Notes under the pieces: generated by a model
The model's database searches: none
What the model saw: the letters and a program-made list of their open reading frames with translations, nothing else
Told to the model about the DNA's origin: nothing
From: a bacterium
GTDB taxonomy: Bacteria > Patescibacteriota > Minisyncoccia > Phycocordibacterales > UBA918
Assembly: GCA_043719295.1 (NCBI GenBank)
Contig: JAYSUD010000005.1
Location: 31,651 to 95,650, forward strand
Length of the DNA: 64,000 nt
Reading direction: 5' to 3'
Shown: positions 3,122-63,955 of the stretch, piece by piece
How the letters are laid out: the number at the start of each line of letters is the position of its first letter
How positions within the stretch are numbered: the first letter of the stretch is position 1
Program-made: the position numbers and the translations under genes

Positions 3122-3601
3122 TTAGCTGATTTCTTTAATACTAATACATATACCAAACTCGTCAGTGGTTCCTTCAATTGAGACGTCATATGATTCAGTG
3201 TAATCAATTCTTATGGGTGTATGTGACCAAATATCAATAAGAATTTCGTTTATTTTTTTCTGTATCCTTTCATCTAAAGGATAAAAGTTAGAAATACCTT
3301 CATCTCCCAGCAGAGTCTTAAGTTGGTTATGAAAGTCTGTGAATGAACCGTTAAACATGACGGTATTTCCAAAACCTGCATGAAACTTTTTTAATTCATC
3401 AGTAATAATTTTTGGTGCCTTTGAAATTTTTGTATGTAAAGTTAAATTACAGTAGAAGTTTAAGATACTATATTTTTCGGGATGGTTTCTTAATTCAAGG
3501 ATTTTCCTGACCCTTGAAAGTATATAAACAATATCTTCTTCAGTTACAGGAATGGACTTAAGTTTTTCGAGTAATTTATCTTTTATTTCTTTTTCACCCA
3601 T
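3122..3601 (-). CDS. hypothetical protein
   Basis: 159-aa ORF; its promoter region carries the GTGACA-N4-GTGACA direct repeat (3622-3638). Confidence 0.5.
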   Translation of the reverse strand: MGEKEIKDKLLEKLKSIPVTEEDIVYILSRVRKILELRNHPEKYSILNFYCNLTLHTKISKAPKIITDELKKFHAGFGNTVMFNGSFTDFHNQLKTLLGDEGISNFYPLDERIQKKINEILIDIWSHTPIRIDYTESYDVSIEGTTDEFGICISIKEIS

Positions 3602-3684
3602 AATGCTATTTTACAGCAAAAAGTGACAAAAGTGACACTTCTTCAAAAACTGGCAATTTTTCAAAAAAAGAGTAGATTTCCATT

Positions 3685-3999
3685 ATGTCAGGAGGACTCA
3701 AGGCGTTGGGAGTTGTTGGAGCAGGAGCATTACTAGCCCTTGGTATTTCAGCGTCTGAGCCTTCGCCTTCAATAACTAATACGCCCACTTCTGCAGTGAC
3801 TACAAGACCAGATATAAGCAAAACCAAGCCTGCGTCCACCTGTCACCCCAGTTATTCAGGCTGTCTTAAAATGAATGCCGGAGATTATGATTGTGCAAGT
3901 GGTTCAGGAAATGGACCTAACTATACAGGCTCAGTACAAGTCAAAGGTTCTGATCCTTTTGACCTAGATCGTGATAATGATGGATGGGGGTGCGAATAG
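3685..3999 (+). CDS. secreted Excalibur calcium-binding domain protein
   Basis: signal-peptide-like N-terminus; C-terminal DLDRDNDGWGCE matches the Excalibur DxDxDGxxCE signature. Confidence 0.7.
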   Translation: MSGGLKALGVVGAGALLALGISASEPSPSITNTPTSAVTTRPDISKTKPASTCHPSYSGCLKMNAGDYDCASGSGNGPNYTGSVQVKGSDPFDLDRDNDGWGCE

Positions 4000-8114: not shown

Positions 8115-8453
8115 AATTAATGCTTGATAGGACTTAATAATTCGTGGCGGATATACAAAAAGCCCGCCACGGGTAGAGGGCGAACCCTCTCGTACCAGTT
8201 TCCCGATACGGCCTATCAAGCAACCCCATGACGGGTTTTTTATGCTTGATAGGACTTTTCACCATGCTCCAGATATTCTCTGAAGTTTAGGCTACTTCTA
8301 AATATTCGATTCTACGAGAACAATAATAGCAGATTTTACTGCCTATTTCACTCTATCGCATGTTTGTTCTTTTGCTAAGGCTCAAACACGAGTATGTGAT
8401 GAATATGAAGTTCTGCATAGACTATGCATCATAAATGGTTCTGTCATTAATTA

Positions 8454-59021: not shown

Positions 59022-62000
59022 TTACCCTCCAGCCTTAGTCAACTCAGCAAGCAATGCCTGAAGTTGAGCTAATTGTTGAAGAAGACTATTAATTTGAGCC
59101 TGCATGTCTGTTGGTGCAACAGAACTCGTAGTGACATATGTAGCTACTACATAGCCATCTACTCCAGAGTCGAAGTTAACTTGTACCCATGAGTAGCCTC
59201 CTGCAGTTACTGCGGGTGTAGTTGCTTGGGTTCCTTGAGCTCCTTTGTATTGGGTTCCGAGTCTTGTGCCGTTTGGTGTTGCACGGACGTTGACGTTGTC
59301 GGTGACACTTACCTTTGTTCCGACTGGAACAGGTGTTGGGGTGGGAGTTGGTGTTGGTGTTGGTGTTGGGGTGGGAGTTGGTGTTGGTGTTGGGGTGGGA
59401 GCAGTAACTGATCCGATACGCGCACCATAGCCTATACCACTTGGTGCAGTTGACTTAAGTCGGAGATCTTGATTCTGCCAATCCAAAAAATGACTTCCAT
59501 ACTGAGCATAGGCTACTATTTTATTGTCTGTAACAGTAACCCCTGCATTGGTTTTAACAGTATTTGCGAGATTTTTTTCAATTCGTGAGTTAACTGGTGC
59601 AGTACCATTTTTATGAGCAACAATTTGTATCCATGATGGGCCAGGTGTAGTTTCATTTGGGTCAATAACAGTATTGTTACGGACAGTTACGTTCTTTGCT
59701 CCATACACTGAAATGCCGTGCCAGTGGTCAACGATAACTACGTTGTCCTCAATTAGAAAGTCTTCATACATACCGTCAAACAGACCAATGCCTTGCATTT
59801 CACCTGCAAGTGGTGCTCCTGGGGTTTCGGTATTTATAAAGGTATTACCCTTAAGGGTAATACCCTTCACCACACCAGTACCAACTGATCCATTAGAGTA
59901 TGACCAAGACTGGAAGCCATCTTGATGAGTTTCATCAACTGCAAAAGCATTTTTTACTATGTTTCCTTTAAAGGTCATATTGTTGGCAAGACCCCGCATA
60001 CCATCTGCTCTAAAACCATCGATAGTATTGTTTTCAACTAAACCATTTGTAGCTGAATATCCTCCAACAATTCCATGTGCAACGTTTTTTACTGTGTTGC
60101 CACTAACTACTACGTTTGTTCCATCAAACGTAATTCCGTCAGCTGTTTTACTTAACCACAAACTTGCTGTCCAACCTGAACGATTACCATAGGTAACTGT
60201 GCTATTACTGAAAGTGACGTAGTCTCCGTTAATCTCTACAGCGTCTACTGCACTGGTTGGGTTTACTTGGACTCCACTAACTGTCCACTGATCACTATTA
60301 ATGGTGAGCTTGGTAAATACAGGCTTTGCTCCTGAGGCTGGGACAATAAATGTTTTCTTTGATTTGTCAGCGCCTGAAATTGTTACAGAACCGTAATTTC
60401 CTGACGCTAGAACTATATACCCTCCGGCTGTTACTGTTTTTACAGCAACAAGAAGCTCAGCTGCATTTGAAACATTGATGGTTGTGCCACTTACAGGAGG
60501 TATTGGAGTTGGTGTTGGTGTTGGTGTTGGTGTTGGTGTTGGTGTTGGTGTTGGTGTTGGAGCGATTAACGTGTAGTTATCTGCTCCTACCCAACCGTCG
60601 AAGCCTGAGTCGAAGTTTACGTTAAACCAAACTACTTTCCCAAATGATTCTGTTGATTCTGTTGGACCTGCAATAAGTTTTCCAGCACTTGCAAGAGGAT
60701 TAATCCCTATTAGAGTAGCTGCTGAAACTTGACCTATTGTCCGAACATTGACGTTATTCTTCATACTCACTCTGTCACCAACTTTGAAACCTGAGACGAC
60801 TGGTGGAATTGGTGTAGGTGTAGGTGTAGGTGTTGGAGTAGGTGTAGGTGTTGGAGTAGGTGTAGTAGTAACTGACCATGAAGCAGGTGGATTTACCGGA
60901 TCAATACGAGCACCGGTGTAAAATGAACCGCCTGAAAAAGTATTACCCGATAGTGACACATTTTTTGAATCAGTACTTATTGAAAGTTTAGGCACCATAA
61001 TGCCTGAAGTTGCTCCAAACTGTGCTACGTATGCAGCATTTTCTTTATCACCTAAGTTAAGACTGGCAGCATTTATAGTATTGTTTCTTACTACTAAGCC
61101 ATCAACTTCACCCATGGTGATACCGTGGGTATGTGCATTGGAAATAGAATTGCCTTCAATCAAGAAGTTTTTGTAAAACATTCCTGAACCTGCTTGTCCT
61201 TGGTCTACAACTTCATTTCGCATAAACAGTGACTGTGTCCAAGAACCCTGTTCAACATGTAAGCGATTGTTTCGAATTACTACATCTGTACTTGGAACAT
61301 TTGTCCCTGTAGTCCAAAACTGAATCATGTCTGCATGGTCACCAGAGTTTACTGCACCACGAAAATTATTAAAATAATTACCTTCGATAAGCACTTTTTG
61401 AACCTGTATGAAATCAAATCCATCAGACCTAATAGCATTAATATTATTATTTAATACCTTTAAGTTAGATGACCCAGAGAAGATTGCTCCACGACCAAAT
61501 TTACGAATTTCACTATTTTGTAACGTTAGACCGTTGACACCATCGACGTAGAGACCTCGGCCAGTTGCGTAGCCATTCATGACTGAATTGACACCTGATG
61601 CCATATCTCCATCAATAGTTATGCCACTAAGAACTATGTCATTACTATTTGTGATCTCAAATGCATTAAAGTGATCCGGATCGCCTGAAGAAAAAACGTA
61701 ATCAAAATTTACGTTTTCAATTGTTACTTTAGAAGATCCCGATAGACTTAATTCAGAAAATACAGCTTTACTACTAGTGTTAGCCGATTTGATTGTTACC
61801 ATAGCAGTGTATGTTTTGTTTCGGATTGAAACTGTTCCATAATTCCCCGCATTGAGTAAAATTGTTTCACCTCCTGTAGCATTAGCAATTGCTGCATTGA
61901 GTTCAGCTGTAGTTGAAACTGTGGTAACAGTTGCCGCCAATACTGTTGGCTTCTGCCCACCCTTCATTCCATTAACTACTAACTGTAGTTGATTAAGTGC

Positions 62001-62126
62001 TTTTGCAAGGTCGTTGAGTGTTGCTGCTTGTGCGGGAACACTACTTACAAACAACATACTGAAAGTGAGTATTGCCACAAGGAATAACTTTATTGATTTT
62101 GTGATGCCACGTGTTGGTGCTGTCAT
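59022..62126 (-). CDS. large secreted right-handed beta-helix (pectate-lyase-fold) repeat protein with three (PT)n linkers
   Basis: signal peptide; NNTI/GNxI parallel-beta-helix repeats; TPTPTPTPTP linkers from (GGTGTT)n tracts at about 59330-59400, 60505-60560 and 60815-60870. Confidence 0.65.
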   Translation of the reverse strand: MTAPTRGITKSIKLFLVAILTFSMLFVSSVPAQAATLNDLAKALNQLQLVVNGMKGGQKPTVLAATVTTVSTTAELNAAIANATGGETILLNAGNYGTVSIRNKTYTAMVTIKSANTSSKAVFSELSLSGSSKVTIENVNFDYVFSSGDPDHFNAFEITNSNDIVLSGITIDGDMASGVNSVMNGYATGRGLYVDGVNGLTLQNSEIRKFGRGAIFSGSSNLKVLNNNINAIRSDGFDFIQVQKVLIEGNYFNNFRGAVNSGDHADMIQFWTTGTNVPSTDVVIRNNRLHVEQGSWTQSLFMRNEVVDQGQAGSGMFYKNFLIEGNSISNAHTHGITMGEVDGLVVRNNTINAASLNLGDKENAAYVAQFGATSGIMVPKLSISTDSKNVSLSGNTFSGGSFYTGARIDPVNPPASWSVTTTPTPTPTPTPTPTPTPTPIPPVVSGFKVGDRVSMKNNVNVRTIGQVSAATLIGINPLASAGKLIAGPTESTESFGKVVWFNVNFDSGFDGWVGADNYTLIAPTPTPTPTPTPTPTPTPTPIPPVSGTTINVSNAAELLVAVKTVTAGGYIVLASGNYGSVTISGADKSKKTFIVPASGAKPVFTKLTINSDQWTVSGVQVNPTSAVDAVEINGDYVTFSNSTVTYGNRSGWTASLWLSKTADGITFDGTNVVVSGNTVKNVAHGIVGGYSATNGLVENNTIDGFRADGMRGLANNMTFKGNIVKNAFAVDETHQDGFQSWSYSNGSVGTGVVKGITLKGNTFINTETPGAPLAGEMQGIGLFDGMYEDFLIEDNVVIVDHWHGISVYGAKNVTVRNNTVIDPNETTPGPSWIQIVAHKNGTAPVNSRIEKNLANTVKTNAGVTVTDNKIVAYAQYGSHFLDWQNQDLRLKSTAPSGIGYGARIGSVTAPTPTPTPTPTPTPTPTPTPTPTPVPVGTKVSVTDNVNVRATPNGTRLGTQYKGAQGTQATTPAVTAGGYSWVQVNFDSGVDGYVVATYVTTSSVAPTDMQAQINSLLQQLAQLQALLAELTKAGG

Positions 62127-62278: not shown

Positions 62279-63139
62279 TTAATTTTGAATAAAAAAAGAC
62301 AAATCACCTTCTAACACCGCTTCTACTTTACTTGTTTCCGCTCCCGAACGATGATCTTTAACCATTTGATAGGGATGAAGAACATATGAACGTATCTGAC
62401 TTCCCCACTCAATTTTGAGCGTTTTTTCTACTGACAGCCCTTGAAGCTCTCGTTTACGCTGTACTTCCCTAAAGGCAAACACGCGTCCAGCAAGGAGTGT
62501 AAGTGCGCGCTCACGGTTTTGCTGTTGACTTCGTTCAGTTGAAACATGGACCGAAATATTGGTAGGGACATGAGTCATGCGCACGGCAGTCTCTCGCTTG
62601 TTCACATTCTGACCACCTGCACCCCCTGAACGGGCAAACGACACTTCAATATCGTCTTCACTAATAACCACGTCCGCAACCACCTCAATCTGGGGCGATA
62701 CTTCAACAAGTACAAAAGAAGTCTGTCGCTTACCATTGCTGTTAAAAGGAGAGATACGCACCAGACGATGTACACCTGATTCTGTTTGTAAGATGCCATA
62801 TGCGTTTTTACCACCTATTTCAAAGGTGATACTTCGGTAGCCATTTTCGTCGTTTGTGTTTGAATCGAGTACCGTAACACTCCAGTTTTTTGTTATTGCA
62901 AACTTTTGATACATTTCTACAAGCATCCGCGCAAAGTCTTCAGCGTCATCACCCCCTGCGCCTGCAACAATAGAAATTATTGCATTATTACGATCATACT
63001 TCCCTTTTCCTTCTGCTTCAGTTTTAAGGTCTTCAAGTTCTTTATACATCGCCTGTGCCTTTTTAGGGTCATTCCAAAAATCTGGACGAATCATCGCCTC
63101 CTCAATCTCAGTTATACGGTTTTGAATATCAGGTGACAT
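62279..63139 (-). CDS. prfB: peptide chain release factor 2 (short N-terminus, no frameshift site seen)
   Basis: GGQ motif ([11 protein letters not shown]), SPF tripeptide (RISPFNS), RF-1 domain. Confidence 0.8.
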
Positions 63140-63141
63140 AG

Positions 63142-63594
63142 CTACTTTGTATGGAGCGTATAGAATTTTGTCTTACGTTCTACATACCCCCTTTTTTCAT
63201 ACAATGGTTGCACCACTGTACGTGAGCAGGTGAGGTTAACTTTTCCACACCCCCATTCATGTGCTTTTGTTTCAAGCGCATTCATTATGAGTGAAAAAAT
63301 ACCCCGACCTCGGAAGTCTTCATGAACAACGATATTGTTAATATACCCAACGACGCGTACCGGGTGAACAATTTTTGTAATTTCACCCATTCCTACAATA
63401 TGCCCGTTTTCAAGCACCCCTATAAAATAATTATTCAAATCAGAGACAGCTGCAATAAAGCGTTCTGGCTCAATAGTCTCTTCAGACGTAACAAGGTACT
63501 TTTGTACCGCTACACAGTCGTATAAATACAGCTCAATATTTGTTGCGGTAAGTCTAATGATTTCCATGTCGCAACAGTATACCAAAACAAACAA
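63142..63594 (-). CDS. GNAT-family N-acetyltransferase
   Basis: acetyl-CoA motif [13 protein letters not shown]; ends 2 nt before prfB. Confidence 0.6.
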
Positions 63595-63679
63595 CCAAAT
63601 GCTGTGCGTCTTGCTCTTTGCTTAGACTCTTAATCTCTATACAAAAACCTTTCGGTTAACCGAAAAGTTTTTGTTATTG

Positions 63680-63955
63680 AGCCAATGTCCGGAATCGAAC
63701 CGGAGACCTACGCCTTCGTTTGCACCTCAGTTTCTTAAAAGTGATATCTGAGGACTAGACTGTATCTTACACTTATCATTTTTGATGGAGTGTCCCTTGT
63801 CAGTCGTTCGGGCCCTTGAGTTACAAGTGCCACGGTCTTGGCCATCACTTTGGCTATTAACCGTTATTCGGGGTTCATGTAAAGTATTTCTACTCTACCG
63901 GGCAAGAGTCACACGACTCACCATGGCGTTGCTCTACCAGCTGAGCTACATTGGC
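63680..63955 (-). tRNA. intron-containing tRNA (about 202-nt group-I-like intron in the anticodon loop); Thr(GGU) favoured, Arg(ACG) possible
   Basis: 5' exon GCCAATGTAGCTCAGCTGGTAGAGCAACGCC+AUGGU (63920-63955), 3' exon AA+GGCGTAGGTCTCCGGTTCGATTCCGGACATTGGCT (63680-63717); exon ends in U and intron ends in G; intron contains AGTCTAGTCC (group-I S/P7-like). Confidence 0.55.

Follow-up and report, generated by a model that had tools for sequence, protein, structure and literature searches.

A compact, ORF-less group I intron, predicted to self-splice, interrupts the tRNA-Thr(GGU) gene of a Paceibacterota-like bacterium

The window, meaning the whole 64,000-nt stretch of DNA analysed here, has a G+C content of 40%, and its gene sequences place the host in the Patescibacteria, with a Paceibacterota-like character. 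Near its right-hand end, on the minus strand, lies a tRNA gene in two halves, followed by a terminator-like hairpin and protein genes on the same strand:

63680..63955, minus strand: whole interrupted tRNA-Thr(GGU) gene; precursor 276 nt, spliced tRNA 73 nt, no encoded CCA (ARAGORN intron mode and sequence reading)
63920..63955, minus strand: 5' exon, tRNA positions 1–36, ending ...ACGCC-AU-GGU, with U36 as the -1 nucleotide; TGGT invariant in 48/48 copies
63717..63919, minus strand: insert, the putative group I intron, 203 nt, GAGUCG...GCAAACG, no ORF (ARAGORN intron mode, alignment and fold)
63680..63716, minus strand: 3' exon, tRNA positions 37–73, starting AA-GGCGU; AAGG in 46/48 copies
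63640..63678, minus strand: terminator-like palindromic hairpin CUUUUCGG-UUAA-CCGAAAGG, then UUUUUGU, directly 3' of the tRNA (sequence reading)
63594..63142, minus strand: GNAT acetyltransferase gene
63139..62279, minus strand: short release factor 2 (RF2) gene
59022-62126, minus strand: gene for a predicted secreted protein of 1034 aa with right-handed beta-helix (NosD-like) repeats

Read along the minus strand from 63955 to 63680, the tRNA gene is GCCAATG-TA-GCTC-AGCTGGTA-GAGC-A-ACGCC-ATGGT / 203 nt / AA-GGCGT-AGGTC-TCCGG-TTCGATT-CCGGA-CATTGGC-T. In the RNA, the 5' half consists of the acceptor strand GCCAAUG, UA, the D arm GCUC-AGCUGGUA-GAGC, A, the anticodon stem strand ACGCC and AUGGU, and the 3' half of AA, the anticodon stem strand GGCGU, AGGUC, the T arm UCCGG-UUCGAUU-CCGGA, the acceptor strand CAUUGGC and a discriminator U. 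When the halves were joined, all pairs of the four stems formed (acceptor 7/7, D 4/4, anticodon 5/5 and T 5/5). ARAGORN run in intron mode called a tRNA-Thr(GGT) with a 203-nt intron at position 36/37; it reports a length of 74 nt for the tRNA, which as counted here, to the discriminator, has 73 nt. In default mode, ARAGORN and the Rfam tRNA model called five other tRNAs in the window and missed the split Thr gene. A sequence-only reading of the locus had described two perfect tRNA halves on the minus strand separated by an insert and had proposed a tRNA search that allows introns; such a search, made with ARAGORN, bore the description out, together with its coordinates and junction. Only the length given there, about 202 nt, was one base short.

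The hairpin immediately 3' of the tRNA may act as a terminator, and a scan lists the same palindrome on the plus strand. Several low-scoring Rfam matches to bacterial small RNAs (SpF41, BTnc231 and others) fell far under their cut-offs and overlap the terminator or the T arm, and were put down to chance. The match to the Bacteroides sRNA BTnc231 (63514-63651, minus strand), for instance, takes in the hairpin as well as the beginning of the GNAT gene, and reached 24.6 bits where the cut-off is 80.4 (E = 0.0075). The RF2 ORF has 286 aa, and of the Pfam PCRF profile only positions 94-194 were matched; by this comparison, the N-terminal domain is shortened or missing. The shortening looks like a lineage trait rather than an error, since the orthologue in the closest relative (L047, see below) aligns across the same 284 residues. 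Between its repeats, the 1034-aa beta-helix protein has several (PT)n linkers, along with domains of about 60 aa that are themselves repeated. Elsewhere in the window, at 8175-8293 on the minus strand, Rfam found a full-length LOOT RNA (89.6 bits against a gathering threshold of 46.4), a structured RNA of unknown function that is unrelated to the intron.

The insert had been proposed to be group I-like, and an Rfam scan had been suggested as a check. When the region was searched with the Rfam group I model (Intron_gpI, RF00028), no match was obtained, either at the gathering threshold or at E<=10. Taken alone, this result would count against the proposal, and comparative evidence was therefore sought. 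The negative scan does not refute a group I reading, because the lineage is known to escape RF00028 (PMC13011429, see below).

We scanned one genome per GTDB species for the pattern TAAGATAYAGTC, followed after 41-71 nt by GGTTCRANTCC; this describes a J8/7-P7' element at the proper spacing from a T arm, whatever the tRNA. The window's own species was absent from the representatives scanned. The pattern returned 77 loci, and 47 of these carried the same type of insert, as judged by ARAGORN and a sequence filter. A covariance model (R1), built from the family alignment, added three more, giving 50 homologous copies outside the window and 51 with the window copy. In all 51, the intron interrupts tRNA-Thr(GGU) at 36/37. 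The aligned introns (n = 48, window included) are 185-221 nt long, and the pre-tRNAs of the homologues are 69-81% identical to that of the window over an aligned stretch of up to full length. The closest locus, L047 from Candidatus Paceibacterota AC1.72, has 81% identity in the pre-tRNA and 74% amino acid identity in RF2; the gene order from tRNA-Thr to prfB is the same there as in the window, and this synteny is kept in the nearest relatives.

Most of the genomes hosting the 50 copies are Patescibacteria MAGs, including Paceibacteria/Parcubacteria, Saccharimonadia, and Doudna-, Andersen-, Yanofsky-, Uhr- and Liptonbacteria. Thr introns of the Patescibacteria type turned up, too, on contigs labelled as non-CPR, namely L044 (NZ_JMIY01000006.1), L015, L022, L001 and L054, and the labels among these include Candidatus Methanoperedens nitroreducens (an archaeon), "uncultured Gammaproteobacteria", Pedobacter and Kapaibacterium. 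Contigs with such labels are probably mis-binned or contaminating CPR sequences; a similar contamination was suspected for a "Pacearchaeota" match by Williams 2020 (bioRxiv 10.1101/2020.01.27.920355).

The 48 pre-tRNAs were aligned with MAFFT, without reference to structure, and a consensus fold was calculated from this alignment (A1) with RNAalifold. The fold contained all four stems of the tRNA, with the anticodon stem bridging the intron, together with P1, P2 and P4-P9. The latter helices had first been assigned by hand, and P3 (CCC/GGG) was added as a pseudoknot before pairs were counted. In the window copy, the elements lie as follows:

63901..63922, minus strand: P1, exon G34 G35 U36 (63922..63920) with the guide G17 C18 C19 (63903..63901), from RNAalifold
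63879..63898, minus strand: P2, 8 bp, 63898..63891 with 63886..63879, GAAA tetraloop at 63890..63887; 8/9 pairs compensatory
63870..63872, minus strand: P3 5' strand CCC, pairing with GGG at 63796..63794 and forming a pseudoknot with P7
63832..63864, minus strand: P4 (63864..63859 with 63837..63832) enclosing P5 (63854..63852 with 63843..63841), with A-rich J4/5 and J5/4
63811..63831, minus strand: P6, 63831..63824 with 63818..63811; 3/3 basal pairs compensatory, also in the window's minimum free energy (MFE) fold
63801..63807, minus strand: P7 5' strand, A113, bulged C114, G115 A116 C117 U118 G119; CGAACGACUG invariant
63794..63796, minus strand: P3 3' strand GGG
63769..63793, minus strand: P8, 63793..63783 with 63778..63769
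63757..63768, minus strand: J8/7 AAGAUA (63768..63763), then the P7 3' strand CAGUC-U (63762..63757), the classical "S" element
63725..63753, minus strand: P9, 63753..63748 with 63730..63725, 17-nt loop ending in GAAA; 4/5 pairs compensatory
63717..63717, minus strand: omegaG, the last intron nucleotide; G in 48/48 copies

The order of elements is that of a canonical group I intron: P3, J3/4 (GAAUAA), P4, J4/5, P5, J5/4, P4', P6, J6/7, P7, J7/3, P3', P8, J8/7 (AAGAUA), P7', P9 and a tail ending in G. Across the 48 copies, 97.0% of cells formed standard pairs, compared with 32-43% when the 3' partners were slid by 1-3 columns. Compensatory changes on both sides were seen in 39 of the 68 pairs, and none of 500 shuffles reached the observed values. 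The changes occur in P1 (two pairs beyond the splice site), P2, P3, P5, P6, P8 and P9. P3 was 98.6% paired, with two of its three pairs changing from CG to UA. P4 was 100% paired, and all four family pairs of P5 covary, three of them being formed in the window. P4 and P7 do not vary at all and are therefore silent on covariation. Part of the constancy of the P7 3' strand stems from the scan pattern, which did not include the P7 5' strand. From the window sequence alone, the MFE fold gave the same helices, with a UU bulge in P1 (z = -2.57). Modelling of P1-P9, which had been put forward as a check on the proposal, gave a complete group I architecture that covariation supports.

Beyond the splice site, P1 continues into a distal hairpin (63919..63915 with 63910..63906), also formed in the window's own MFE fold, and U15 and U16 (63905..63904) are bulged. 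The presumed guanosine-binding site is recognizable at the sequence level: A113-[C114]-G115ACUG pairs with CAGUC-U, J8/7 reads (U)AAGAUA, and the G115-C162 pair is, by inference, the one that would bind guanosine. The sequence CGAACGACUG of the P7 5' region aligns to AGAGACUA of RF00028-positive introns. The J8/7-P7' segment aligns to AAGAUAUAGUC of the RF00028 consensus, and the counterpart of P7' in RF00028-positive introns is UAGUC. The sequence-only reading had singled out AGTCTAGTCC as the S/P7 element; its left part does lie in P7, whereas the remainder does not, and the P7 3' strand is instead the CAGUC at 63762..63758, after J8/7 AAGAUA.

P2 is capped by a GAAA loop (L2) in 37 of the 48 copies, and P8 carries the motif GCUA(A/C)(G/A)...(U/C)AUG(C/U) in 27. 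In the Azoarcus intron, L2 docks into an 11-nt GAAA receptor, which the P8 motif of these 27 copies resembles, a hint of a possible L2-P8 contact in the family. The window copy and L047 lack the receptor-like GCUAAG..UAUGC in P8, though both keep the GAAA loop on P2.

A U at position -1 and a terminal G occur together in every aligned copy (n = 48) at the 36/37 junction only. The U36.G17 wobble of P1 was UG in all 47 distinct sequences, and the two G-C pairs between exon GG and intron CC were likewise formed in 47/47 each. [quoted passage not shown] For some homologues, ARAGORN placed the boundaries so as to give Arg-ACG/GCG, His-GUG or Pro-GGG, an ambiguity of a type described in PMC13011429; these junctions do not have a U at -1 and a terminal G in all copies, and the intron-less alleles agree with 36/37 alone. 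The Arg-ACG junction had already been set aside in the sequence-only reading, correctly: with it, the intron would not end in G, and the junction is not conserved. A P10 helix was also considered. U15 and U16 could pair with the AA of the 3' exon, and the 3' exon AAG could form 3 bp with CUU in the window; the latter pairing is not conserved in the family and is not claimed as a feature.

We also searched metagenomes for tRNA-Thr(GGU) genes that lack the intron and share the anticodon-loop sequence. Among the 48 aligned members, 8 have an intron-less allele there that is identical at 73/73 positions to their predicted ligated exons. The metagenome contigs concerned are L131, L132, L184, L084 and L188, which match the exons of L012/L051/L064/L069, L011/L033, L002 and L071. 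For the window itself, the best intron-less match was 66/73. The identical alleles fix the junction without recourse to group I rules, and they show that the intron is polymorphic for presence or absence among close relatives. The Thr-GGU reading, with its junction at 36/37, is thus supported by the invariant splice-site nucleotides, the U.G pair in P1, the covarying P1-P9 fold and the intron-less alleles.

The relationship to accepted group I introns was examined with R1. Its alignment includes the window copy, so the 180.6 bits that it gave this copy are not an independent result, and its E-values are rough; the family copies scored 149-199 bits, most of them having been used to build the model. 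Beyond the family, R1 produced full-length matches to L074 (48.5 bits), to a second intron in L053 (3571-3773, 45.7 bits), to a tRNA-Asn intron in L018 (38 bits) and to L063 (21.2 bits), as well as to L021 and L073. Among these, L074, the second L053 intron and L063 are RF00028-positive, L018 and L021 are below the gathering threshold, and L073 was outside the RF00028 scan. The R1 alignments to L074 and the second L053 intron bring P2 with its GAAA loop, J3/4-P4, P4', P7, P8, J8/7-P7', P9 and the terminal G into correspondence. We therefore conclude that homology, and not a mere likeness in shape, links the insert to the group I tRNA introns of the Patescibacteria type. The remaining tRNA introns in the set of loci, which are not of that type (Arg-UCU, for one), were not matched by R1.

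In the retrieved loci, RF00028 itself picked up other tRNA introns (L074, L048, L075 and L063) at 50-60 bits, with 59.9 bits for L074, and gave the second L053 intron 57.1 bits. On 17 family loci, it yielded no match at the gathering threshold. One family copy, in L053, was matched at 21.6 bits against the 50-bit cut-off; this match was mis-threaded and anchored only on J8/7-P7', and was not counted in support of the global fold. L053 is a Doudnabacteria contig that carries its Thr-family intron at 2546-2813 and the second, canonical group I intron at 3571-3786 on the minus strand, about 800 nt apart. In intron mode, ARAGORN called no tRNA surrounding the second intron.

The family is already described. 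Nakagawa et al. 2026 (mSystems, PMC13011429, Table 1) reported introns at 36/37 of tRNA-Thr(GGU) in three complete Patescibacteria genomes (GCA_001029635.1, GCA_016700375.1 and GCA_030583745.1). They are called "divergent group I introns" there, were missed by RF00028 and found by tFind (gpI_bact_tRNA.cm, Williams 2020), and fall on a long branch beside the Patescibacteria Asn and Asp introns in subgroup IA; no Patescibacteria tRNA intron was assigned to IC. In vitro self-splicing was demonstrated for one Asn and one Asp intron, and not for a Thr intron (PMC13011429). Williams 2020 (bioRxiv 10.1101/2020.01.27.920355) had extended the intron-split bacterial tRNA types from 4 to 21 and noted that the RF00028 seed contains no bacterial sequences. 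The window intron agrees with the published Thr introns in host gene, anticodon, 36/37 site and phylum, in being invisible to RF00028, in the ambiguous ARAGORN calls (Arg-GCG, in some copies) and in its typical group I size (185-221 nt here); judged by the published description, there is no difference in kind. The Thr(GGU) 36/37 site, the RF00028 miss and the kinship with Asn and Asp introns were reproduced independently here.

[quoted passage not shown] In common with the Thr family, they have the P2 GAAA loop, AUAACGGU in J3/4-P4, ACCGUGG in P4', GACU/AGUC in P7, AAGAUA in J8/7, the receptor-like P8 and the terminal G. They differ in their host tRNA and their insertion site (35/36), in being RF00028-positive at 50-60 bits, in a longer P3 (CUGG/CCAG, compared with CCC/GGG in Thr introns) and in J6/7-P7, which reads GUAGAGACUA rather than CGAACGACUG. 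Some Asn and Asp introns contain HNH homing endonuclease genes, while none was found in the Thr introns seen here.

The Azoarcus tRNA-Ile(CAU) intron, of about 205 nt, and the cyanobacterial tRNA-Leu(UAA) intron both belong to subgroup IC3. The Thr introns resemble these two in their anticodon-loop site, small size, lack of an ORF, U.G pair and omegaG, in the anticodon stem that bridges the intron, in the P2 GAAA loop and, for the family though not for the window copy, in the receptor-like motif in P8. The two IC3 introns reside in other tRNAs and other phyla. A likeness to the Azoarcus intron had been drawn from the window sequence, and it holds for the small size and compact layout; the nearest relatives according to R1 are the Patescibacteria Asn and Asp introns, not the IC3 intron of Azoarcus. 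As to subgroup, the family has a compact layout, a GAAA loop on P2 and a receptor-like P8, yet R1 cross-matches only introns of the Patescibacteria Asn/Asp type, and the Thr introns were placed with IA (PMC13011429).

Taken together, we consider the window tRNA-Thr(GGU) gene to be interrupted at 36/37 by a compact, ORF-less 203-nt intron that is probably a self-splicing group I intron, with a probability of roughly 90%. Catalysis by this intron is predicted from its sequence and its relatives. Against this stands the view that the insert, though derived from a group I intron, has lost catalysis or needs a protein helper, so that the gene would be a pseudogene or depend on a host factor. Selection on the folded RNA argues otherwise: all core elements are conserved, and compensatory changes have kept the helices across 48 species from several Patescibacteria classes. 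The splice-site U.G pair and omegaG are invariant as well, and the exons still form perfect halves of a cloverleaf. Such a relic would nevertheless fit the failure of RF00028 and the "divergent" sequence, a short P3 with only three G-C pairs, the loss of the receptor-like P8 motif in the window and its nearest relative L047, and the restriction of the published assays to Asn and Asp introns (PMC13011429). On balance, we regard loss of catalysis or dependence on a helper as unlikely.

The position in the anticodon loop and the missing Rfam group I call might also suggest removal by a protein endonuclease and ligase, as for bulge-helix-bulge introns of the archaeal and eukaryal type. The site is, however, 36/37 and not the canonical 37/38; the junctions are about 200 nt apart, and inspection of the sequence and the MFE fold revealed no helix with two 3-nt bulges; the 5' junction lies inside P1 at a U.G wobble, the 3' junction follows a single-stranded tail, and the insert is homologous by R1 to bona fide group I introns. 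Protein splicing is thus very improbable. Equally far-fetched is the view that tRNA-like halves came together by chance or through an assembly error, even though the gene escapes both the Rfam tRNA model and ARAGORN in its default mode: the 50 independent copies exclude this view for practical purposes, the same arrangement recurring in as many assemblies at 69-81% identity, with prfB synteny in the nearest relatives.

If the insert is a self-splicing group I intron, as we favour, the precursor would fold so that G34 G35 U36 of the exon pair with the intron guide GCC in P1, with the splice site at the U.G wobble. An exogenous guanosine held by the P7 pair G115-C162 would then attack the bond after U36. 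In the second step, omegaG (G203) would take the same P7 pocket, and the free 3'-OH of U36 would attack the bond after G203, giving ligated exons whose anticodon loop reads A-U-G-G-U-A-A. Alignment of the exons is probably helped by the 5-bp anticodon stem, which bridges the intron, and by a weak P10 of UU with AA; in the Anabaena pre-tRNA, the anticodon stem holds the exons together (Zaug et al. 1993, as cited in PMC13011429). Cleavage by RNase P and the addition of CCA would then finish the tRNA.

One further idea is that the Thr(GGU) lineage forms a group I subgroup of its own. The rate at which these introns splice, if it depended for instance on GTP, would then adjust how much there is of the sole tRNA for ACC and ACU in cells that have few regulators. 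The traits behind this idea are a near-invariant 17-nt J6/7-P7-J7/3-P3' block, the 3-bp P3, the strict confinement, in several Patescibacteria classes, to a single tRNA and a single site, and the coexistence of intron-less alleles with identical exons. Intron-based tuning has been a matter of speculation for Patescibacteria introns in general (PMC13011429). For the Thr lineage, we would treat it as a long shot.

Biologically, the window intron is one more case of a described phenomenon and by itself raises no new question. Its value lies mainly in annotation: default tRNA finders and Rfam miss the gene, so that the genome would appear to be without a tRNA-Thr(GGU) and completeness scores would suffer, a point also made in PMC13011429. 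For the Thr lineage as a whole, the 51 copies and the covariance model provide much stronger comparative support than the three genomes published before (PMC13011429), and the comparative set shows that in this family the intron can be present or absent between identical exons.
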